Positions 32,763 to 59,143 of a DNA stretch of 64,000 nucleotides are shown here, in pieces. The position numbers were made by a program, and so were the translations under genes. The notes under the pieces are model-generated. The model did no database searches. It saw nothing but the letters and a program-made list of their open reading frames with translations, and was not told the DNA's origin. Positions within the stretch are counted from its first letter, which is position 1, and each line of letters begins with the position of its first letter. This stretch comes from Desulfurococcales archaeon (GTDB lineage: Archaea > Thermoproteota > Thermoprotei_A > Sulfolobales > NBVN01): positions 901 to 64,900 of the forward strand of contig WAOK01000002.1 of assembly GCA_015521325.1 (NCBI GenBank). Reading direction: 5' to 3'.

Positions 32763-33173
32763 GTGACATCGGTTCAGAGGCTATGGAGGAGGTCCCGTGA
32801 GTATCTGAGCCTTAAGGCCTTTAGGTGCCGAAGGTGCGGGGAGGTCATATACCCGCCTAAGAGGGCGTGCCCGTACTGCGGCTCCAGAGATCTCGTAGAG
32901 ATTACCTTACCAAGGAAGGGGAGGATCATTACTTACACCGTAATCAACGTACCTATAGAGGGCTTCTCAAAACCGACTATCATCGCCGTAGCTGAGCTGG
33001 GAGGAGCTAAGGTGATGGCTCAGGTGGTCGAGGGTGCTGAGCATCTAGTTGAGGATGCTGAGGTAGAGGTCGTGCTCGGTAAGGTCGGCAGAACCGTGGA
33101 GGGGCTGGAATACTATATGCCGGCTTTCAGGGTGGTGTCAGGCAAAGACCTTAAGGAGGGCGACACCGACTAG
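32763..33173 (+). CDS. DUF35 OB-fold/zinc-ribbon protein (thiolase/HMGCS scaffold)
   Basis: CRRCGEVIYPPKRACPYCGS rubredoxin-like ribbon followed by an OB-fold-length tail. Immediately downstream of the thiolase. Confidence 0.8.
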   Translation: MTSVQRLWRRSREYLSLKAFRCRRCGEVIYPPKRACPYCGSRDLVEITLPRKGRIITYTVINVPIEGFSKPTIIAVAELGGAKVMAQVVEGAEHLVEDAEVEVVLGKVGRTVEGLEYYMPAFRVVSGKDLKEGDTD

Positions 33174-48880: not shown

Positions 48881-51013
48881 TTGAGGAACGACTTAACGCC
48901 GTTAAAGGATACGGGGCTGCCTGGGCACATAGCGGCGATGCTTGAGAGAATGGGCTATAAGGCCCTAACACCGCCGCAAGTCGACGCTGTGAGGGCTGGT
49001 GTGGCTGAAGGTGCCGACGTTGTGGTGGCGGCCCCGACCGCCTCGGGTAAGACCCTCATAGGTTACATAGCCATGCTTAAGGCCGTGTCCGAGGGAGGGA
49101 AGGCCGTCTACGCCACACCACTGAAGGCGCTGGCCGAGGAGAAGTTCGAGGACCTTAAGCAGTGGGGTGACAGGCTCGGTTTCCGTGTCGGCATAACAAC
49201 AGGAGACTATGACTCTCCCGGGGAGTGGCTGAGGAGTTATGACGTGATCGTCGCTACCTACGAGAGGCTCGACTCCCTCTTCAGGCTCAGGCCATCATGG
49301 CTATCCAGCGTCTCTACATTAGTAGTAGACGAGTTCCACATGATAGGTGACCAGAAGAGGGGTCCCGTCGTCGAGCTGGTTACGGTGAGGGCCAAGGATT
49401 ACGGGATGCAGGTTGTCGGACTATCAGCGACGATAGGTAATCCCGAGGAGCTGGCTGAATGGTTGGGGGCTGAGGCCGTCGTAAGTGGGTGGAGACCCGT
49501 CGACCTTGTTGAGGGATGGTATAGGAGGAGGGCGCCGGGGAGGGGCGAGATAATCTTCACAACCGGGCATAGGGAGCCCGTGAAGGGCGACCTCTACGCG
49601 TTCACAGCCCATAAGGCAAGGGCTGAGGGCTGGCAAGCCCTTGCATTCATACACTCGAGATCGAGGGTCGAGTCAACTGCTGTGAGAGTGGCCAAGACAA
49701 TGCCACAAGTATGGGGGAGGGCAGCGGAATTCCTTGAGGAGCACGGAGCCACGAAGACTGAGGTGAAGTCCCTCGCACCCCTCATGGAGAGGGGGGTCGC
49801 ATACCACCACGCAGGTCTCTCACAGGGTGCTAGGAAGGCCGTTGAGGAGGCGTTCAGGGAGGGCAGGATATACTTCGTCGTCGCTACCCCGACGCTTGCG
49901 GCCGGCGTCAACATGCCTGCGAGAAGGGTGCTGGTGAGCGTGAGGAGGTACTCCGCAGGGTACGGCATGGTCTACATATCAGTTGCCGAGTACAAGCAGA
50001 TGGCGGGAAGGGCCGGTAGGCCGCAGTACGACCCAATAGGTGAGGCCGTCATAGTCGATGCACGCGGGGAGGACAGCGCCCACACCTACATATACGGTTA
50101 CCCCGAGCCAGTAACCTCATCCCTTACGAGCAGGAGGAACCTCAGGATACATGTCCTGGCCACGGTTGCCTCTGGGTATGCAAAGGATACTACCGAACTA
50201 TACAGGTTCTTCTCAAGGACGTTCGCCGCCCACAAAGTCGGCGATGCACTGGAGGATCATGTTAAGTGGACCATTGATTGGCTAATTGAGGAAGGCTTCA
50301 TGAACGTGAGAGGGAGGGCGCTCGAACCCACGCCTCTCGGGTCCGCCGTAGCAAGGCTGTATATAGACCCGTTCACGGCGTTTGCCCTGAGGGACTTGCT
50401 TAAGGACGCGCCTTTCCCGGCAGGGGATCTGTACTACCTTCATGCGGCCGCCATGACCCCTGACTTCTCGGACGTCCGCGTAATCAAGTACAGCGCCCTC
50501 GAGGAGGACGCGTTCGCTGCACTTGATTCTGGGGCCATACCCGACCAACCTGACTGGCTCAGCTTCAATGAGTGGTTAAGGGCGTACAAGCTTGCCCTAA
50601 TTCTGAAGTCCTGGATAGAGGAGGCGCCGATAGACGAGATCGTGACTAGGTACGGAATTGGGGCCGGAGACCTGAGGGTATACGTGGACACAGCGTCCTG
50701 GATCGTGACGGCTATGTCAAAGATCATTAGGTACCTAAATCCCGAGAGTGTAAGAAAACATGGAACGCCTCTGGCCAAGCTCGCTATGAGAATAGAGCAC
50801 GGCGTGAAGGAAGAGTTACTCGACCTTGTCCGTATACGCTATGTTGGCAGAGTTAGGGCTAGGGCGCTTTACAGAGCTGGCTTCCGAAACGTCGCTGATG
50901 TTGCCTCCGCTGATCCGGGGACTATTGCGAGGATCGCCGGTATTGGGCCCAAACTCGCGAGCGAGATAGTGGCATCTGCTAAGGAAATACTCACTCAAGG
51001 AGGAGGGGCTTAA
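48881..51013 (+). CDS. hel308: Hel308/Hjm-type Ski2-like DNA helicase
   Basis: Walker A AAPTASGKT, DEFH box, SAT motif, HHAGL, QMAGRAGR. About 710 aa with a C-terminal HhH-like domain. Confidence 0.88.
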   Translation: MRNDLTPLKDTGLPGHIAAMLERMGYKALTPPQVDAVRAGVAEGADVVVAAPTASGKTLIGYIAMLKAVSEGGKAVYATPLKALAEEKFEDLKQWGDRLGFRVGITTGDYDSPGEWLRSYDVIVATYERLDSLFRLRPSWLSSVSTLVVDEFHMIGDQKRGPVVELVTVRAKDYGMQVVGLSATIGNPEELAEWLGAEAVVSGWRPVDLVEGWYRRRAPGRGEIIFTTGHREPVKGDLYAFTAHKARAEGWQALAFIHSRSRVESTAVRVAKTMPQVWGRAAEFLEEHGATKTEVKSLAPLMERGVAYHHAGLSQGARKAVEEAFREGRIYFVVATPTLAAGVNMPARRVLVSVRRYSAGYGMVYISVAEYKQMAGRAGRPQYDPIGEAVIVDARGEDSAHTYIYGYPEPVTSSLTSRRNLRIHVLATVASGYAKDTTELYRFFSRTFAAHKVGDALEDHVKWTIDWLIEEGFMNVRGRALEPTPLGSAVARLYIDPFTAFALRDLLKDAPFPAGDLYYLHAAAMTPDFSDVRVIKYSALEEDAFAALDSGAIPDQPDWLSFNEWLRAYKLALILKSWIEEAPIDEIVTRYGIGAGDLRVYVDTASWIVTAMSKIIRYLNPESVRKHGTPLAKLAMRIEHGVKEELLDLVRIRYVGRVRARALYRAGFRNVADVASADPGTIARIAGIGPKLASEIVASAKEILTQGGGA

Positions 51014-51866
51014 CACCTCTCTCGTCAACTAGGGCGACTGACGTGGGGTAACCGTAGTACCTGCACGTGAATATGTTGAGGATTAGGCCCCCGTGATAGT
51101 ATGCGAATCCCTTCGGGGCTGGTTCGTGCGACCTGATTATGCCCTTTAGTGAGTTCTCCTCAATGAACGCCTTAGTGACGTCGGGCCCGAAGAGATATGA
51201 GCCCGGCCCCCTGTGCCCCGGTATGAACCCCTTTATTTGGTCGCTCGGGTCGTTCCACAGGATCTGATACTCGACCTCGTTCCCTTCGGGAAGAGGCTCC
51301 ACCAACCCCTTCCTCAGGCCCATGAAGTCAGCGAGTCTCGAAGCACCCTTGGGTAGGCCGCCATGAATTCCGAGGTAGCCCCCTATTAGCGCCGCGTAAG
51401 GGAGGCCTGCAAACATGCGTAAGAACCTGTCGTAGATAGTGCCCCAGGCATTGGGGTATATCCTGGCAAGCGTCTTACGGAACCCGTACCTAAATGATAT
51501 TGACCAAGTTTCATGGTTGCCCCTTATCATGAAGTACTTGTCGGGGTCACTAAGCCTCAGTCTCATAAGCTCCACGATCACCTCATGCTGATGCGGTCCC
51601 CTATCAACGTAGTCACCAAGGAAGACGACCCTACATTCAGGTCCACAGTACTTACCAGCAGCTGAGAGGGCTTTGAGGAGCGACAAGTAATCACCGTGGA
51701 GGTCGCCAACAACAAGTGCCGGGGGCTCCACGACTATGAGTGGGGGGAGGGGCGCTATTGATTCTATCATTTCGTCTATTAATTCAAGTAACTCGTTTTC
51801 ACCTACCAAGCTCGGGGGCAGGACAGGCTTGTGCACGGCGTCATCATATGACGCTCTCATAACCAT
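50991..51866 (-). CDS. PPP-family Ser/Thr protein phosphatase (PP1-arch type)
   Basis: GDLHGD, GDYVDRG, RGNHE motifs. Confidence 0.85.
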   Translation of the reverse strand: MVMRASYDDAVHKPVLPPSLVGENELLELIDEMIESIAPLPPLIVVEPPALVVGDLHGDYLSLLKALSAAGKYCGPECRVVFLGDYVDRGPHQHEVIVELMRLRLSDPDKYFMIRGNHETWSISFRYGFRKTLARIYPNAWGTIYDRFLRMFAGLPYAALIGGYLGIHGGLPKGASRLADFMGLRKGLVEPLPEGNEVEYQILWNDPSDQIKGFIPGHRGPGSYLFGPDVTKAFIEENSLKGIIRSHEPAPKGFAYYHGGLILNIFTCRYYGYPTSVALVDERGVKPLLLE

Positions 51867-51881
51867 TATTCACTCACCTCA

Positions 51882-52472
51882 TCACCACCGTGCACCTAAG
51901 ACCTCTCTCAACTTTCTTAATAGGTCCTCCGGGGTTTTACCAACCCTATCATCTCCTGATATTCTTATAAACCGGAGACCCAATCCCTTCGCCGCCTCAG
52001 CATCCCACGGCGTGTCACCAAAGAAGATCGCGTGGCTTGGCCCTACTTGGAGCAACCTAAGAACAATGGCCAGTTGCTCGTCCCGTCTTGGTGTATGATC
52101 CCTGGTCACGAGCACATCGACGATATCCTTAACACCGAGACGCTCGAGAACCTTAGAAGCAGTTCCACCGCCTCTTAGTGAAACGACAGCGACTATGTAT
52201 CCGAATTGCTTAGCCCTCATGAGTAGATGCTTCAGTTCAGGATCTACCCCTATGCTCGCGAGGCTCGATTCCTCAGCATCCCTGACGATGTCCTCGAGCA
52301 TCTCCCTTGTTTCCTTTGGGAGAATTGAGAGCACCTCCGCTAATGGCTTACCGTCAACTTCAACACCGGCGAACCTCGTGAACAGCTCCCGGATCCTTCT
52401 CCAGTCTATCCCCGAGTTCACCAGTGTCCCGTCTATGTCGAATATCAGCACTTTCCTAGTCCTCAACATCAT
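51882..52472 (-). CDS. HAD-superfamily hydrolase
   Basis: Motif I IFDIDGTLV and motif IV FFGDTPWD. Confidence 0.75.
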   Translation of the reverse strand: MMLRTRKVLIFDIDGTLVNSGIDWRRIRELFTRFAGVEVDGKPLAEVLSILPKETREMLEDIVRDAEESSLASIGVDPELKHLLMRAKQFGYIVAVVSLRGGGTASKVLERLGVKDIVDVLVTRDHTPRRDEQLAIVLRLLQVGPSHAIFFGDTPWDAEAAKGLGLRFIRISGDDRVGKTPEDLLRKLREVLGARW

Positions 52473-52538
52473 CAGCGCTAGACCTCATCATGGATGCGGT
52501 TTTAAACTATATTTTGGTCTTTCAGACACCTTAAGACG

Positions 52539-53576
52539 GTGTGGTGTTTGTATAAGAGCACGGCCCCGTCCACCCCACTACCCCAGCCGCCAACGCCTCC
52601 ACCACCACCTCCTGAGGAGGAGATAGTTGAGCACTTCGAGTGCCCGAATTGTGGGGCACCGATAGAGATAACCCCGGACACGCTCGTAATTGTTTGCAAG
52701 TACTGCGGGTACACAGAATTCAGAGATCCCGGGTATGAGGTCTACGTGCTCAAGGCGCTGGATAAGGCAGAGATCGAGCGCAGATTCTGGGAGAGGATGA
52801 AGAAAGACCCCGATATGGCTCCGCATGTAGGGGACATACAGATAGTAGATACCACATTTATCTACACACCGTTTTACTTAGCGGACTACGATGCAGAATG
52901 GTATTACATAGGCGAGAAAACAAAGACCGAGGTACACGGCAGCGGAAAAAACGCTAGGGTAGTAACCAAGGTGATTAAGGTTCGGGGCAGTGGGAGCGAG
53001 TCCGGCAGGATAGCCATACCGGGGAGGAGGTACGTTGAGGAACTCGGCATGAAGGAGCTCGGCGATGCTATAGAGCAGGTCGACGAAAAAACCCTCATCC
53101 CGGCCAAGGAATACAACTGGGAGAAATACATAGAGGCGGTACTGGGCTTCGATTACGAACCTAGGGAGATACCTCAGATGGTCAAAGACATTGTTGCGGA
53201 GGAGATTAAGAGAAGGATCTATAAGGAGAAAAACCTAACGAAAATGTTGGCTTTCCTTTGTAGAGTCAAGACAAAGTCTGTTAGAGCAATACTTGCGCCG
53301 ATTTATGTGATAACATACAAACTCAAGGGAGGCATTTACGGAATAGCATTCTCAGGATTCGATGGTAGGCAGCTGGTGGCTATGGAGCCAGTCTTCACGA
53401 AACACATGATTGAATACACTGCAGGTGCCGCAGCGCTTGCATCTCTAGGTGCAGCTGCTGCTGCGCTGGCGGCCGCCGTCCAGGAGGTACACATACTGAT
53501 CGTTCCTATTCTAAGCCTTCTTGGGGGGTTCTACTTAATGCATAAGGCCGTCGGGGGTGTGAGGTTTGAGCGCTGA
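52539..53576 (+). CDS. zinc-ribbon protein with Pro-rich N-terminus and C-terminal Ala/Gly-rich TM anchor (unknown function), paralog 1
   Basis: CPNCG...CKYCG ribbon, then a central region of about 230 aa, then IYVITYKLKGGIYGIAFSGFDGRQLV, then TM helices. GTG start about 25-30 nt after GTTTTAAACTATATTTTGG. Confidence 0.55.
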   Translation: MWCLYKSTAPSTPLPQPPTPPPPPPEEEIVEHFECPNCGAPIEITPDTLVIVCKYCGYTEFRDPGYEVYVLKALDKAEIERRFWERMKKDPDMAPHVGDIQIVDTTFIYTPFYLADYDAEWYYIGEKTKTEVHGSGKNARVVTKVIKVRGSGSESGRIAIPGRRYVEELGMKELGDAIEQVDEKTLIPAKEYNWEKYIEAVLGFDYEPREIPQMVKDIVAEEIKRRIYKEKNLTKMLAFLCRVKTKSVRAILAPIYVITYKLKGGIYGIAFSGFDGRQLVAMEPVFTKHMIEYTAGAAALASLGAAAAALAAAVQEVHILIVPILSLLGGFYLMHKAVGGVRFER

Positions 53577-54675
53577 GTTCGGCACCGAGACCGTGGAGTG
53601 CCCCTACTGCGGCGCATCTAATACAGTGAGCAAGGATGCAAAATCAGCTAAGTGCTCGAGGTGCGGCAGGGAGTTCGCTGTGCTGAGGTGCCCCTATTGC
53701 GGTGCTGTCTTCGGAGCCCCGCACATGGTCAACGCAGCCACGTGCCCCTACTGCGGTTACTACTTCTACGTGAAGTCCGGAAAGGACGTAGGTGAGCACT
53801 ACTACTTCAAGGTGGTGTTCTCCTCCGGTAGGGCGTTCCAGAGAATGCTCTCGTTCATTGCAAGAAACTTCGGCGCGCCGGAGGACTTCACCTCCTCAAC
53901 AAGCCTCAGGTCGGCGACCCTACACTATGTCCCGATACACGCTGTCCATGCCGAGGCTGAAGGAGAATGCGAGTACCACGAGGGGCTGTGGTTCTGGAAG
54001 AAGTCATACACAGGGGACTTCGTGGAGGTTAGGGACATATTCCTCCCCGCAACCAAGAAATTCCCGTACCTCGAGGATCTGAAGGGCTACCGTTTCAGTC
54101 TAAGAGGTAGAGAATACTTCAAGCCCAGAGTGATGAGGATAGGTAAATACTACCCAATAGAGTCGGACAAGGAGACAGCCCTAAAGGCAGCTGATGCCGC
54201 GATTAGGAGGTCACTTATGAAGGACCTGGAAAGCGGGTGCGCTGGAAAGAAAACAATAACTAGCGTGAGGCTCGAGTACTTAGGGGTCACCCACTACCCG
54301 CTCTGGGAGCTGAGATACGAGTACAAAGGCGCCCTCCTCACCGGGCTTGTTGACGCGTCATCAGGTAGGGTAGTGTTCGCTGAGCACCCAATCGCCTGGA
54401 AGGCAAAGGAGAAGGCCAGCATCATGAGCGCTGCCACAATACTGTCACCGACCGTAGTGGGTTCGGCAGTGGGAGGCGCCCTAGGGGGAGGAAGCATGGC
54501 AGCCGTAGGCAGTGTTGCCGGACTAGTTATCGGGCTAATAGTTGCTATTCCTGCCCTTGCAAAAGTGATTAAGAAAGTCGAGAAGTCAAAGGAGTCGCTC
54601 AGTGATTGGGGGCTCTTCAAGGAAAGGGATATTCTGGAAAATATGTCGAGGTTCTTGCTCGGCGGCCTCACTTAG
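53566..54675 (+). CDS. double zinc-ribbon protein with C-terminal Gly-rich TM anchor (unknown function), paralog 2
   Basis: CPYCG...CSRCG and CPYCG...CPYCG ribbons, with the same overall architecture as the upstream gene (LWELRYEYKGALLTGLVDASSGRVV, then TM). 11-nt overlap with paralog 1. Confidence 0.55.
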   Translation: MSAEFGTETVECPYCGASNTVSKDAKSAKCSRCGREFAVLRCPYCGAVFGAPHMVNAATCPYCGYYFYVKSGKDVGEHYYFKVVFSSGRAFQRMLSFIARNFGAPEDFTSSTSLRSATLHYVPIHAVHAEAEGECEYHEGLWFWKKSYTGDFVEVRDIFLPATKKFPYLEDLKGYRFSLRGREYFKPRVMRIGKYYPIESDKETALKAADAAIRRSLMKDLESGCAGKKTITSVRLEYLGVTHYPLWELRYEYKGALLTGLVDASSGRVVFAEHPIAWKAKEKASIMSAATILSPTVVGSAVGGALGGGSMAAVGSVAGLVIGLIVAIPALAKVIKKVEKSKESLSDWGLFKERDILENMSRFLLGGLT

Positions 54676-55811
54676 CCAAAGATCGCCTTTTCTTCCAAGA
54701 GCTCTCCTCTCTCGTACCTTTCCGGCACCAGCTTCCTGGTCTCGGGTAGGCCTGGCTTACCCTTCATTACGTAGTTGGCCAGCTCCTTACCAACTATCGG
54801 CGCCATCATGAAGCCGTGGCCGGAATAGCCTGTGGCAAGATATATGTTGCTGTATCCCGGCACCCTGCCGATTATTGGATGATGGTCAGGTGTCTTTATG
54901 TAGTACCCTGTCCATACGCGGAGGAGGTTCGCATCGAGGATTTGAGGGAAGTACCTGCTCATGTACCTCACGGCCCTCCCTATGAAGCCGAGGTGTATGC
55001 TGAGGTCATTCTCAGGTACTGGGTACTCTGTCCCTAGTATCACCCCTCCAGAACCGACCTGCACGATGTAGGAGCCGCTCGCCTTATGGATGACGAGGGG
55101 CTCAAGGAAGGGAGCGTACTTCTCGGTTATCATGAGGTGGTGTGGGTCACCCTTTAGCGGTGGCTCGTAGCCTAAGGGCCTCAGCAACTCCTTGCTCCAG
55201 TACCCGGCCGCGACTATCACGCTGTCCTCGATGTCCACCTCCCCGCCGCCCGAGAGCTTCAGGGTGACGGCCTCGCCCTCCTTCGTCACTATCCCCTCGA
55301 CCCCCACGTACTCGAGGATCTTAACGCCTAACTTGAGGAGGTTCCTCCTCATTATCCACACGGTCTTGAGCGGGGATATCTTGCCAGCTGTTGGGTCATG
55401 AAGCGCCGCTATCACGTCGCCGAGCTTCATCGAGGGGACAACGCTCAGTACCTCCTCACCGTACAGCATCCTGGTGGGGACGCCGAGCCTGTTATGGAGT
55501 CTCTGAAGGGCCTCATGCTGCTTAACCAGCTCCTCGGTTGTGAGTAACCATAGGTACCCGGACTGCCTGAACGGCAGGCCTGCCTCATTCCTCAGCCTTA
55601 GCCACTCCTTTATTGACTCCCTCATTAGGGCTACGTGCACCTCTGAGGTGAATGACGCCCTTATCCCGCCTGCGCACCTACCGGTCGATCCCGAGCCTAG
55701 GTAGCTCCTGTCAAGGATGATTACCTCGCCCTCGTACCCGAGCCTGCGGAGATAATACGCTGTGAACAAGCCTGTTGAGCCACCACCGATTATCGCTACC
55801 CCTGCCCTCAC
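54672..55811 (-). CDS. FAD-dependent oxidoreductase, beta subunit of PDH1-type L-proline dehydrogenase / sarcosine-oxidase-like complex
   Basis: N-terminal dinucleotide fold VAIIGGGSTGLFTAYYL. DAO-family layout, about 42 kDa. Last gene of a 4-gene overlapping operon. Confidence 0.8.
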   Translation of the reverse strand: MRAGVAIIGGGSTGLFTAYYLRRLGYEGEVIILDRSYLGSGSTGRCAGGIRASFTSEVHVALMRESIKEWLRLRNEAGLPFRQSGYLWLLTTEELVKQHEALQRLHNRLGVPTRMLYGEEVLSVVPSMKLGDVIAALHDPTAGKISPLKTVWIMRRNLLKLGVKILEYVGVEGIVTKEGEAVTLKLSGGGEVDIEDSVIVAAGYWSKELLRPLGYEPPLKGDPHHLMITEKYAPFLEPLVIHKASGSYIVQVGSGGVILGTEYPVPENDLSIHLGFIGRAVRYMSRYFPQILDANLLRVWTGYYIKTPDHHPIIGRVPGYSNIYLATGYSGHGFMMAPIVGKELANYVMKGKPGLPETRKLVPERYERGELLEEKAIFG

Positions 55812-56101
55812 TCCTCCCTCACCCCCAGGAACTCCCTCAGCTTCGTCGGCTTAGTGGGAGGCCTCGCTAGGGGCACGTGGAGCTCATCCTCAGTCTTCCA
55901 CCTCTGTGGTTCCCCGAATATGCTGGGATAGAGGCGAAGGAGGAGGTTGAGGCAGTACCTCCCACCGCAATTGCCCATGCCAACCCTGAGCCTCCTCTTC
56001 AGCGTCTCGAGATCCTTGATACCCTCCTCCTCAACGACCTTCTTTATCTCCTCGAGCGTGACCTCCTCGCACAGGCATATATACTTAGGCACCGTCACCA
56101 C
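55808..56101 (-). CDS. small BFD-like [2Fe-2S]-binding subunit (delta-like)
   Basis: CLCEEVTLEEI ... GNCGGRYC cysteine pattern as in BFD-like domains. Confidence 0.65.
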   Translation of the reverse strand: MVTVPKYICLCEEVTLEEIKKVVEEEGIKDLETLKRRLRVGMGNCGGRYCLNLLLRLYPSIFGEPQRWKTEDELHVPLARPPTKPTKLREFLGVREE

Positions 56102-56594
56102 CCCTCACGGGCCTGACGGCCCTCACCTCCATCACTAGCTCCGGTGAGGGCACCTCGACGGTGACGACATAGGTCAGGTTGTCCTTAAAGAACTTCACAA
56201 CGCGTCCCCTCCCAACTGGCTCGCCGACCCTGTTGAGGAGCTCGACCTCCACACCCTTTGCTGGTGCCTCCCCCATCTCGTAAGGGACGGTGACTTGGGG
56301 CGGGTCCTTGCTCAGGTCTACGACGAATATCGCCTGCCCGGGGCATCGGCCCACGCAGATACCGCACCCTATGCACTTGTTGAAGTCTATCACTGGCTTC
56401 TCGGTTATCTCCCCCATACTCACTGCCTTAAGCGGGCACGCCCACACGCAGACATCGCAGGGAATGGGCTCAACGCACTCGAATATAGCTACGGGACCCT
56501 TCCTCAGCCTCTCCTCGTTCGGTACGTAGCCCAGCTCCTTAATGAGGTCAGGGGAAGCTATACCGTCTGGTGAGGGCTCACGCAACCTCCTCAC
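56085..56594 (-). CDS. ferredoxin-type iron-sulfur subunit (gamma-like)
   Basis: CDVCVWACP and CIGCGICVGRCP motifs. About 19 kDa. Confidence 0.7.
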   Translation of the reverse strand: MRRLREPSPDGIASPDLIKELGYVPNEERLRKGPVAIFECVEPIPCDVCVWACPLKAVSMGEITEKPVIDFNKCIGCGICVGRCPGQAIFVVDLSKDPPQVTVPYEMGEAPAKGVEVELLNRVGEPVGRGRVVKFFKDNLTYVVTVEVPSPELVMEVRAVRPVRGGDGA

Positions 56595-58014
56595 CCCCGA
56601 TAATCACCTTCTCCAGCCCGGCCCTCACCCTCGCACTAACGGGTGAGGACCTGTAGGTCTTGAGTAGCTTGAGGAGCCTCTCCCTCTCCTTCATCCACTC
56701 GTCCCTCTCCCCGCGGAGCTTCATGAGCATCGAGTAACCGGCTATCCACCCCTCTATTATTGCGGTGGTCGCTTCCTCAACCCCCGCGACGTCACCGGCT
56801 ACGTACACGCCCGGCACGGTCGTCTCCAGGTACTCCGTCCTCAGGGCCGTGAGGCCGCCGAGCTCTGGCACGTACTTTGTCTTGGCACCGAACTGCCTCA
56901 GTAAGTCGACATTCGGGGTGAGCCCGACGGCTAGGAGCACAGCGTCACATTCTATAGTTTTCTCTGTTCCGGGTATGGGCCTCCACCGCTCATCGACCTC
57001 TGCTATTGTGGCTGCCTCAACCCCCTCTTCTCCGTGGGCCGCCACTATCGTGTGCCTCACGTATATCGGGACGCCGTACCTCCTCACCTTAGCTGCGTGG
57101 ACGAACCATCCCCCAATCCTCGGCGCGGCCTCAACAATCGCCGCCGGCTTCGCCCCAGCCTGAAGGAGCTGATAAGCAACTATTAGGCCAACATTACCCG
57201 CACCTACGATGAGCGGTCTCTTTCCCGGGAGCACGCCCCACACGTTCATGAGTGTCTGGGCAGCCCCGGCACCCATTACCCCGGGGAGGTCGTTGTTCTC
57301 GAAGGGGAGGTAGTTCTCAACGGCGCCAGTCGCGACTAGATAAGTGCCCGCCCTAAGCACGTAGTTTCTCTCCTCCCCTACGGCGAACACGCCCTCTTTG
57401 AAGACACCGATTGCGGTCGTCCGGAGAAGCACGTCCACGCTTTCAAACGACCTAATCTTTTCCTCATATTTTTCTGCTATCTGGAACCCCCTAAGCCCAG
57501 CGAATAGTTCCCTGGACCCGAAGAATCTGTGAGTCTGTTTGATGAGTTGCCCTCCCAGCCTGTGCGAGTCATCGACTATGAGTGTCCTCACTCCATGAGT
57601 ACCGAGTACCTCGGCAGCGGCTAGGCCTGCCGGGCCCCCGCCAATAATTAGGGCCTCCGCCTCGACCTCCTCAACAGGCTTCGCCCCTCCTCCTGCCTCC
57701 TTGAGGACTGGGTAGCCCTTGATCCTCCTAACCCTCATCCCATCGCGCACGAGCTCCTGACAAGCCCTCTTCGCTATCCCGTCGACCTCGACTATGCACG
57801 AACCGCACTTACCTATCATGCAGAAAACTGAGCGCGGCCTGCCATGCTTTGGGGAGTATCTCAGTATTTTGTGACCGGCAGCATAAAGAGCGGCTGCTAG
57901 GGCCTCGCCCTCGAATGCCTTGATGGGCTCGCCCTCGAAGTATATCGTCACTTCCCTACCTCTTCGAAATGTGAGTACTGGGTGATGGTGAATCCTTAGG
58001 CCAGTATACCCCAA
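56578..58014 (-). CDS. pyridine-nucleotide-disulfide-type FAD/NAD oxidoreductase with N-terminal 2Fe-2S-like domain (alpha subunit; SoxA/HcnB/OoxA-like)
   Basis: N-terminal IYFEGEPIKAFEGEALAAAL...CMIGKCGSC domain, ALIIGGGPAGLAAA and PLIVGAGNVGL dinucleotide folds. TTG 58014 fits a leaderless start after CTTTATATCT; GTG 57951 is an alternative. Confidence 0.8.
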   Translation of the reverse strand: MGYTGLRIHHHPVLTFRRGREVTIYFEGEPIKAFEGEALAAALYAAGHKILRYSPKHGRPRSVFCMIGKCGSCIVEVDGIAKRACQELVRDGMRVRRIKGYPVLKEAGGGAKPVEEVEAEALIIGGGPAGLAAAEVLGTHGVRTLIVDDSHRLGGQLIKQTHRFFGSRELFAGLRGFQIAEKYEEKIRSFESVDVLLRTTAIGVFKEGVFAVGEERNYVLRAGTYLVATGAVENYLPFENNDLPGVMGAGAAQTLMNVWGVLPGKRPLIVGAGNVGLIVAYQLLQAGAKPAAIVEAAPRIGGWFVHAAKVRRYGVPIYVRHTIVAAHGEEGVEAATIAEVDERWRPIPGTEKTIECDAVLLAVGLTPNVDLLRQFGAKTKYVPELGGLTALRTEYLETTVPGVYVAGDVAGVEEATTAIIEGWIAGYSMLMKLRGERDEWMKERERLLKLLKTYRSSPVSARVRAGLEKVIIGGEEVA

Positions 58015-58126: not shown

Positions 58127-59143
58127 GTGAACTCGTTGCCGACAGTTGTGGCCTCCGCCCCCGGTAAGGTAACGCTCTTCGGCGAGCACGCAGTTGTTTA
58201 CGGTTACCCAGCAATAGTAGCTGCTATATCGAAGAGACTCCACACCAAGGTCACGCCTCGGCGAGACCACGTCATCCAGGTCGTGGCGAAGGACATCAAG
58301 GTCCCCGGAATAGTCCTCACGTACTTCTCGGAGGAGGAGGTGGTCGTTGAGACAGACTACAAGTCAAGTATGAGCGCTCTCTCCTACGTACGCACCGCGG
58401 TGGATGTTGTTAGGGAGTACCTCGGGATAAATAGGGGCGCCGCGATCGAGATAACCTCCGAGATGCCTGTCGGGGCAGGCCTCGGCACCTCCGCCGCGGT
58501 GTCAGTGACGACCATCGCCGGTTACGCGGCGGCCCACGGCTACACCTTGAAGAAGGAGGAGATAAGAGATCTGGCGTGGGAGGTCGAGAAGAGGGTTCAG
58601 GGTAGGGCGTCCCCGATGGACACCACCATAGCCACCTTCGGCGGGGTACTCAAGATAGTTCCGAGTGAGGGCGAGCCCAAGATAGAGGCCCTGGAGGCGC
58701 CGGAGGACCTCCCGTTCGTGATAGGCTACGTTGAGAGGGAGGCGGGGACTAAGGAGATGGTCGCTAAGGTTGCTAGGCTGAGGGAGAGGTTCCCCGATGT
58801 CGTGGAGGGCGTGATGAGGCTTATTGGTCAGGTAACTGAGGAGGCTGAGAAGGCGTTGAAGAACAGGGACCTCGTCACGCTGGGCACCTTAATGAACATA
58901 AACAACGGGCTCCTCGATGCCCTAGGGGTCTCAAACAAGAGGCTCAGCGAGCTAGTCTACGCTGCTAGGTGGGCCGGCGCCCTCGGCTCTAAACTCACCG
59001 GTGCAGGTGGAGGAGGTGCTGTCATAGCCTTATCGCCGGGCAGGGAAGAGCAGGTCGAGGTCGCGATGAAGCTGCACGGCGCCCTAACCCTCAGGGCTGA
59101 CGTAGGTGTTGTCGGGCTTGTTGTGAGGAAGGTGAAGGAGTGA
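58127..59143 (+). CDS. mvk: mevalonate kinase
   Basis: GHMP-kinase motifs: APGKVTLFGEHAVVYG, PVGAGLGTSAA, KLTGAGGGG. Confidence 0.9.
   Translation: MNSLPTVVASAPGKVTLFGEHAVVYGYPAIVAAISKRLHTKVTPRRDHVIQVVAKDIKVPGIVLTYFSEEEVVVETDYKSSMSALSYVRTAVDVVREYLGINRGAAIEITSEMPVGAGLGTSAAVSVTTIAGYAAAHGYTLKKEEIRDLAWEVEKRVQGRASPMDTTIATFGGVLKIVPSEGEPKIEALEAPEDLPFVIGYVEREAGTKEMVAKVARLRERFPDVVEGVMRLIGQVTEEAEKALKNRDLVTLGTLMNINNGLLDALGVSNKRLSELVYAARWAGALGSKLTGAGGGGAVIALSPGREEQVEVAMKLHGALTLRADVGVVGLVVRKVKE

Follow-up and report, generated by a model that had tools for sequence, protein, structure and literature searches.

YdjG of Bacillus subtilis is a membrane protein with two zinc ribbons (ZnRs), a YpeB-related NTF2-like domain and a transmembrane segment (PMC11237479). 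Deletion of ydjG or of ydjH abolishes the membrane recruitment and the foci of both the SPFH protein YdjI and PspA, the YdjG and YdjH proteins interact with each other, and mutants in either gene mislocalise cell-wall synthesis under alkali shock (PMC8581546). The need for YdjG in membrane recruitment is known only from B. subtilis, by genetics and two-hybrid assays (PMC8581546). A 2026 preprint renamed ydjGHI as samGHI and proposed that SamG and SamH together sense membrane stress, as a complex that the SPFH protein SamI restrains (bioRxiv 10.64898/2026.02.06.704340). Here, two adjacent genes (gene 1 and gene 2) are described from a 64,000-nucleotide stretch of DNA, hereafter the window, of a Desulfurococcales archaeon (GenBank assembly GCA_015521325.1, contig WAOK01000002.1, positions 901 to 64,900 of the forward strand). 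Their products are very probably members of the YdjG/SamG family, and their relatives form a fixed tandem pair of paralogs in many archaea, in about half of the loci close to a gene for a YdjI-like SPFH protein.

Homology to YdjG/SamG

A reference pspA-ydjG-ydjH-ydjI operon was taken from a metagenome contig by way of the ydjG primer printed in PMC8581546. The recovered proteins carried PspA_IM30 (PspA), Zn_Ribbon_TF only (YdjG), TPM_phosphatase (YdjH), and Band_7_1 followed by a ZnR (YdjI). A family profile centred on the downstream type of the archaeal pair, to which gene 2 belongs, aligned with residues 48-319 of YdjG in hhalign (probability 99.2%, E 1.8e-19, 246 columns), and the gene 1 profile also aligned with YdjG (96.4%, E 1.3e-9, 267 columns). 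Hmmsearch with three profiles against YdjG scored 110.8 bits for the family profile centred on the downstream type, and 42.7 and 21.5 bits for the others. The core ribbon cysteines of the family align with C56, C59, C74, and C77 of YdjG, and five further conserved positions correspond among gene 1, gene 2, and YdjG, respectively: P111/P123/P139, P254/P245/P280, Y260/Y251/Y286, G276/G267/G302, and P284/P275/P309. The C-terminal body motif of gene 2 aligns with VLLPVWMVSYDYERAEHIFAMNGQTGKVVGKPP of YdjG. Identity of the window proteins to YdjG is only about 20%. Membership of both in the YdjG/SamG family is well supported and very probable.

YdjG/SamG and the archaeal pair have in common one or more N-terminal Cys4 ribbons, a homologous body with the motif P.W...Y.Y...G..G.....P, and a C-terminal membrane anchor, which in the archaeal proteins is a predicted one, and the bodies on both sides are alike without Pfam or NCBIfam coverage. 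Like YdjG, the archaeal relatives are also associated in the genome with a YdjI-type SPFH+ZnR protein (32 of 63 loci). Unlike B. subtilis, which has a single ydjG, archaea have two ancient paralogs in a fixed order.

The first-pass annotation of this stretch, made from the sequence alone, had offered the pair as an undescribed module and named no family. That claim was not upheld because profile searches place both genes in a family of which one member has been studied by experiment (PMC8581546; bioRxiv 10.64898/2026.02.06.704340) and its domains described (PMC11237479), although the archaeal arrangement is apparently undescribed. Its proposed comparison with PspA-associated bacterial zinc-ribbon membrane proteins proved apt: both proteins are YdjG/SamG homologues, and their relatives are linked with YdjI/SamI-like SPFH proteins. 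The motifs that it quoted (for gene 1, CPNCG..CKYCG and a proline tract; for gene 2, a charged tail besides two ribbons) are all present, and its picture of a probable non-enzymatic membrane scaffold or sensor, with a zinc ribbon predicted to be cytoplasmic, a globular body, and a C-terminal anchor, is likewise supported.

An ancient pair of paralogs

By BLASTP, gene 1 and gene 2 resemble each other in the ribbons only. Hhalign of their orthologue profiles aligned them at 97% probability (E 6.9e-11) over 239 columns, and the AlphaFold2 (AF2) models of the two proteins have the same order of secondary-structure elements. The profile alignment establishes them as true paralogs, as the first-pass annotation had claimed, and the beta segments and juxtamembrane elements that it had paired by eye are the same segments that hhalign aligns, including the most conserved positions of the family outside the ribbon.

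Gene order was mapped with profiles of both types against the six-frame open reading frames (ORFs) of every locus. In every case in which the contig extends far enough, the downstream-type gene directly follows an upstream-type gene on the same strand, end to end or with an overlap of a few bases. This holds for 59 loci from at least eight lineages, among them Desulfurococcales, Ignisphaera, Thermococcus, Methanomethylicota, Thor/Promethearchaeota, Pyrobaculum, and one Anaerolineae metagenome-assembled genome (MAG), so that the co-occurrence for which the first-pass annotation had proposed a phyletic survey is widespread. In a neighbour-joining tree of the 59 upstream and 59 downstream proteins with YdjG as the root, every downstream protein fell in one pure clade and 49 of the 59 upstream proteins in another. 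Within one genome, the two types were on average 0.95 apart, versus 0.71-0.77 within a type across phyla. The duplication is therefore older than the divergence of these archaeal lineages, with the gene order fixed since. Because this tandem order has been kept since so early a duplication, the two paralogs may well be subunits of one complex, that is, a heterodimer. In one Desulfurococcaceae MAG (L037:5063-9539), the pair is itself doubled in tandem as G1-G2-G1-G2, where G1 and G2 denote the upstream and downstream types, with the coiled-coil and SPFH genes described below about 1.4 kb upstream.

A word-indexed search returned only nine homologues of gene 1 and eight of gene 2, which badly underestimates the family. 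With an exhaustive profile search the number rose to 823 clusters at E≤1e-3, 126 of them at ≤1e-10, and a genome scan with one genome per species found 68 loci. These span Desulfurococcales, Acidilobaceae, Ignisphaera, Zestosphaera, Pyrobaculum, Geoarchaeota, Methanomethylicota (Culexmicrobium), Thermococcus, Thor/Promethearchaeota, Bathyarchaeota, and one or two Anaerolineae MAGs. Among more distant members, a 285-aa and 334-aa pair has an HSP20 gene directly upstream (L073:1402-4280), and a lone 268-aa member is divergent from a gene for an M48 (HtpX-like) peptidase (L072:4838-6807). Both neighbours are of a stress type and may count towards a role in membrane stress.

Association with SPFH and coiled-coil proteins

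Clustering of neighbouring ORFs gave two families, found at 31 loci each. The first consists of proteins of about 345 aa with Pfam Band_7_1 (PF13421, E 5e-23) and C-terminal zinc ribbons, and the second of helical proteins of about 170 aa. In 32 of 63 loci, no more than 4 kb separates the SPFH (Band_7_1+ZnR) gene from the pair, and the gene for the 170-aa protein is equally close in 32 of 63. The linkage to SPFH over this distance was found in all six Methanomethylicota-type loci, all six Ignisphaera loci, six of eight Thermococcus loci, and 11 of 18 other Desulfurococcales loci. The gene order is helical - SPFH - G1 - G2 in Ignisphaera, Desulfurococcaceae, Zestosphaera, and Methanomethylicota, and G1 - G2 - helical - SPFH in Thermococcus, while in three loci (L011, L022, and L037) the helical and SPFH genes are rearranged yet still near the pair.

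The archaeal SPFH neighbour, composed of an SPFH domain, a low-complexity linker, and a ZnR, aligns end to end with YdjI (BLASTP E 1e-18, 119 bits) and has the same full-length Band_7_1 (PF13421) plus ZnR architecture as YdjI/SamI. With one such protein as query (L011:12206-13231), YdjI-like SPFH+ZnR proteins formed 2384 archaeal clusters at E≤1e-20, with 60-69% identity across Bathyarchaeia, Nitrososphaerota, Aigarchaeota, and Nezhaarchaeota, a far better conservation than that of the YdjG-like pair. In the window itself, a 136-aa ORF at 32763-33173 (+) matches the archaeal SPFH+ZnR profile weakly (E 0.002), probably through a zinc ribbon alone.

The companion of the SPFH protein differs between Bacillus and archaea. 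YdjI/SamI occurs with PspA in Bacillus, whereas in the archaeal loci where the approximately 170-aa coiled-coil gene was found it nearly always adjoins the YdjI-like SPFH+ZnR gene. This coiled-coil family has invariant PGF.GY...E..REDD and GY motifs, belongs to no Pfam family, and matches only generic coiled coils in the PDB. As a homologue of PspA or ESCRT-III it finds no support in sequence; structural analogy is compatible with these results, and the protein is a possible functional analogue of PspA/ESCRT-III. In place of the SPFH and coiled-coil genes, Thorarchaeota have after the pair a gene for a conserved small protein that carries a transmembrane segment at its N-terminus and a Cys4 zinc ribbon at its C-terminus and matches no Pfam or NCBIfam family (Table 1). 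An impression by eye that this small protein is gelsolin-like was dropped for want of Pfam support.

Protein architecture and predicted topology

In both proteins the sole hydrophobic stretch is at the C-terminus by hydropathy, and neither has an N-terminal signal or transmembrane segment. The AF2 models have predicted local distance difference test (pLDDT) scores of 76.5 for gene 1 and 74 for gene 2. Both begin with the ribbon strands and a helix, go on to a very long beta-hairpin and a variable insert, and close with a long helix, a sheet of three or four strands, and two C-terminal helices; the body comprises about 220 aa. Among the 118 archaeal pair members, the C-terminal hydrophobic span has a median of 44-48 aa, enough, as read from sequence, for a hairpin that would return a tail of 22-26 aa to the same side. 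The predicted topology is a cytoplasmic ribbon and body on a C-terminal hairpin anchor.

Conservation is concentrated in the ribbon and at the end of the body. The four ribbon cysteines of gene 1 are kept in 98% of 59 upstream-type proteins, in which P111, P254, Y260, G273, and P284 are 94-100% conserved. The gene 1 body closes with the family motif P..Y...Y.......G..G.......P, and the tail after the hydrophobic span reads K-x-x-GGVRFE-R/H, with K336, G340, and V341-E344 invariant in eight orthologues. Among the 59 downstream-type proteins, P123, F185, P245, D263, and G267 of gene 2 are 100% conserved and W247, Y251, Y253, and P275 98% conserved. Only the closest orthologues (P0010-P0012) share the first ribbon of gene 2 (aa 1-39). 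More distant ones (P0013-P0017) lack it, which marks this ribbon as a lineage-specific addition. The charged tail of gene 2 is probably amphipathic.

Scans of both proteins, 78 diverse relatives, and YdjG against Pfam, NCBIfam, and PADLOC matched zinc ribbons and left the body without any match, apart from Pfam PepSY in one of the 78 (E 4.8e-5); the PADLOC defence models gave no family for either window protein. PDB sequence-profile searches with both proteins returned ribbon noise only, and Foldseek of both AF2 models against the PDB gave no match with an E-value under 0.03, and TM-scores were near 0.1. Weak Foldseek matches to aerolysin, secretin, and TldD-like folds were dismissed as artefacts of the long beta-hairpin. 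Some likeness to PepSY lies in the C-terminal unit of a helix and three or four strands with a '..D..tG.v' turn, but neither window protein matched PepSY (PF03413) at E≤1 and Foldseek against the PDB gave no significant fold match. Typically, PepSY domains lie outside the cytoplasm. The one structural match of significance, to the gene 2 model, was a 493-aa Yasminevirus protein annotated as 'DnaJ-like subfamily C member 3' (BFVD A0A5K0UBJ7; Foldseek E 1.3e-6, 337 aligned columns, TMq 0.33), which hints that the gene 2-type fold may occur in fusions with J-domains.

Possible functions of the pair

The explanation favoured here, with moderate confidence, is that the two proteins together are a receptor or sensor, heteromeric, facing the cytoplasm, and anchored by hairpins, which serves an SPFH-based membrane-maintenance system. 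The Gly/Ala-rich C-terminal hairpins would hold both proteins on the membrane, leaving the ribbons and bodies in the cytoplasm, and the paralogs would assemble into a heteromeric membrane receptor or sensor. This receptor would dock a soluble YdjI/SamI-type SPFH protein (Band_7_1 with a C-terminal ZnR) at the inner face of the membrane, together with the coiled-coil partner, in the service of a membrane-maintenance or envelope-stress system, as YdjG and YdjH do for YdjI and PspA in B. subtilis. In the lineage of the window, the receptor pair would have become unlinked from the SPFH gene. For the SPFH docking and the stress function of the pair, which draw on homology, on gene linkage in other lineages, and on analogy with Bacillus genetics, the balance tips only slightly in favour. 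The PspB and PspC proteins of E. coli, as small membrane sensors of envelope stress that recruit or regulate a peripheral membrane-protecting protein, offer a functional analogy only: they have neither sequence nor architectural likeness to the window pair, and PspBC and SamGH are stated to be non-homologous by the authors of the SamGHI preprint (bioRxiv 10.64898/2026.02.06.704340).

Several observations weigh against an SPFH receptor. To our knowledge, the molecular function of YdjG is poorly defined even in B. subtilis. No SPFH or coiled-coil gene lies near the pair in any of six window-clade and seven Thor/Promethearchaeota loci with adequate flanks, and the 64-kb window encodes neither an SPFH+ZnR protein nor the 170-aa coiled-coil protein; the window pair thus does not adjoin an SPFH gene, unlike ydjGHI of B. 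subtilis. The coiled-coil protein showed no likeness to PspA (hhalign probability 0.07%), and no member matched Pfam PspA_IM30 or Snf7. Single-sequence phmmer searches with PspA and the TPM protein YdjH gave no match in the ORFs of 72 sequences (the window and L001-L071), so the bacterial effector (PspA) and a key partner (YdjH) are missing from the archaeal loci at this level of detection, unlike in the B. subtilis operon. The anchors also differ, the archaeal pair having a two-helix hydrophobic span of about 45 aa and YdjG one transmembrane segment of 20 aa.

The same lack of linkage would suit a stand-alone sensor or transducer of membrane stress with no SPFH partner in the window clade, whose hairpins would feel perturbation of the bilayer and whose ribbons and body would relay it to another cytoplasmic target, for example a regulator or a protease. 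No linkage to SPFH is seen in the window clade or in Thorarchaeota, where the pair has the small transmembrane ZnR protein as another conserved neighbour, and the GGVRFE tail of gene 1 is invariant within the window clade; in B. subtilis, it is SamGH itself that has been proposed to signal, SamI having no more than a restraining part (bioRxiv 10.64898/2026.02.06.704340). However, no kinase, transcription factor, or protease is conserved beside the pair, and an unlinked SPFH gene is not an absent one, given that YdjI-like proteins are very common in archaea; a stand-alone sensor is regarded as unlikely. Without any stress signalling, the pair could instead be tethered to the membrane to help assemble envelope or membrane-protein complexes, as an assembly factor or a chaperone adaptor that may position cell-envelope synthesis or recruit Hsp70/J-domain chaperones. 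The mislocalised cell-wall synthesis of ydjG and ydjH mutants under alkali stress (PMC8581546) would fit such a role, as would the chaperone-like assembly function argued by Ravi et al. for band-7, TPM, and CesT partners of PspA (PMC11237479) and the giant-virus DnaJ-like protein A0A5K0UBJ7. That protein is a single viral match with a low TM-score (0.33), however, a DnaJ domain was found in none of 78 family members, and no envelope-synthesis genes are conserved as neighbours, which leaves this role quite improbable. The very long beta-hairpins of the AF2 models, with aerolysin-type toxins and secretins among the weak top Foldseek matches, might suggest a pore-forming or membrane-disrupting effector pair, as in abortive infection or defence, yet those matches are not significant (best E 0.03-0.16, TM-scores ≤0.1), PADLOC gave no match, and the family, unlike defence islands, shows vertical conservation, a stable chromosomal context, and ordinary GC. 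Such an effector is highly improbable.

Returning to the SPFH receptor, a bolder and more doubtful extension would treat the four genes (coiled-coil, SPFH+ZnR, and two YdjG-like paralogs) as an ancient, undescribed machine for membrane repair or remodelling, distributed from Thermoproteota and Thermococci to Asgard archaea. The YdjG-like pair would be its receptor or sensor and the coiled-coil protein a polymerising effector like PspA/ESCRT-III, and the window lineage would keep the pair as a separately transcribed unit.

Organisation of the locus

Gene 1 and gene 2 are real genes, with orthologues at 44-91% and 30-88% identity, respectively, and the only plus-strand genes between minus-strand neighbours (Table 1). 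The first-pass annotation had reported them as ORFs of 345 and 369 aa that overlap by 11 nt and stand isolated between minus-strand genes, all of which is found here except that the start of gene 1 has shifted. TTG 52548, not GTG 52539, is most likely the true start because the product from TTG is 100% identical to the annotated protein P0001 (342 aa), the codon matching GTG 52539 is followed by an in-frame stop in the closest relative (L004), and gene 1 orthologues begin with MYKS. The TATA-like box that had been pointed out upstream gains weight from a 23-mer spanning it, GGTTTTAAACTATATTTTGGTCT, which is identical in the window and L004 although the flanks have diverged. It may act as a single promoter from which both genes would be expressed as one transcript. 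Translation of the two genes is probably coupled because the Shine-Dalgarno-like GGGGGTGTGAGG inside gene 1 fits coupling. A lower GC content, seen by eye in the first pass, is real but mild (0.532 for the pair versus a window mean of 0.562) and, at the 12th percentile among 2.1-kb windows, no outlier, and a suspicion of horizontal transfer raised by it was dropped.

Table 1. Features of the gene pair and its flanks (window coordinates) and of associated proteins at other loci (coordinates preceded by a locus number).
Feature	Coordinates	Strand	Basis and remarks
TATA-like promoter element (putative) TTTAAACTATATTTT	52503..52517	+	Sequence reading; ~31-45 nt 5' of likely gene 1 start
Gene 1, upstream-type YdjG/SamG-like protein	52548..53576	+	342 aa from TTG 52548; ORF open from GTG 52539 (52539..53576, 345 aa)
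Gene 1, Pro-rich/acidic low-complexity N-terminal tract (PLPQPPTPPPPPPEEE)	52572..52625	+	Translation; close orthologues only; pLDDT < 50
Gene 1, Cys4 zinc ribbon CPNCG...CKYCG	52641..52709	+	Sub-threshold Zn_ribbon_3 match
Gene 1, alpha+beta body	52734..53390	+	DSSP of AF2 model: helix, long beta-hairpin, helix, 3-4-strand sheet
Gene 1, Ala/Gly-rich C-terminal hydrophobic span	53415..53555	+	~47 aa; Kyte-Doolittle; AF2 helices 288-314 and 317-338
Shine-Dalgarno-like GGGGGTGTGAGG	53553..53564	+	Inside gene 1, 2-13 nt 5' of gene 2 start
Gene 2, downstream-type YdjG/SamG-like protein	53566..54675	+	369 aa, TTG start; ORF list
Gene 2, extra first zinc ribbon CPYCG...CSRCG	53599..53667	+	Orthologue alignment
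Gene 2, core family zinc ribbon CPYCG...CPYCG	53689..53757	+	C42, C45, C60, C63 invariant in 78 family members
Gene 2, alpha+beta body	53794..54390	+	DSSP of AF2 model; ends in motif HYPLWELRYEYKG...VDASSGRVVFAEHP
Gene 2, Gly/Ala-rich C-terminal hydrophobic span	54415..54582	+	~56 aa; hydropathy; AF2 helices 278-307 and 309-335
Gene 2, charged tail after hairpin	54583..54672	+	Translation; low pLDDT; K.V.K..E.L.DW partly kept in orthologues
Metallophosphatase	50991..51866	-	Upstream flank
HAD hydrolase	51882..52472	-	Upstream flank
DAO / BFD-[2Fe-2S] / 4Fe-4S / Pyr_redox_2 cluster	54672..58014	-	Downstream flank
~170-aa coiled-coil protein	L013:5443-5973, L047:5185-5688, L027:8907-9398 and 25 other loci		Aligned set
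Thor small transmembrane+ZnR protein	L055:9064-9450, L057:3817-4224, L062:9040-9399, L064:4068-4436, L065:9054-9431		

The gene 2 stop codon TAG (54673-54675) overlaps the stop (54672-54674) of the convergent DAO-family oxidoreductase gene, so that the two genes have 4 nt in common (54672-54675) and no intergenic space for a terminator. The oxidoreductase cluster consists of four genes (DAO, BFD-like [2Fe-2S]/SO_alpha_A3, 4Fe-4S ferredoxin, and Fer2_4+Pyr_redox_2), presumably akin to archaeal proline or sarcosine dehydrogenase complexes, and is followed by a GHMP kinase gene at 58127-59143 (+); cluster and kinase are unrelated to the pair. On the other side, the HAD-family hydrolase gene is divergent from the pair throughout the window clade. 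Its neighbour cluster is present in 14 loci, and five Thermococcus loci carry a homologous gene upstream of the pair at a distance of a few genes, which may be chance or a weak conserved association.

Implications

Until now, YdjG/SamG has mostly been seen as an accessory of PspA in Firmicutes, with a body for which there is no Pfam or NCBIfam model. In the open-access literature and bioRxiv, no description was found of the archaeal distribution of the family, of the obligate two-paralog arrangement, or of the four-gene module in which a coiled-coil protein replaces PspA/YdjH. The archaeal two-paralog arrangement, the module with its new coiled-coil protein, and a domain model for the body are apparently still undescribed. 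For annotation, two 'hypothetical proteins' become named family members. More broadly, the family is widespread in archaea, Asgard archaea included, as a fixed pair of ancient paralogs. The new coiled-coil family is flagged as a possible analogue of PspA/ESCRT-III, and the pair offers a candidate route by which soluble SPFH proteins may be docked to archaeal membranes. Because of the archaeal spread, the fixed paralog pair, the linkage to YdjI-like SPFH proteins, and a coiled-coil companion without sequence-detectable PspA, the findings suggest that a core of SPFH protein and receptor may be older and more general than its connection with PspA.

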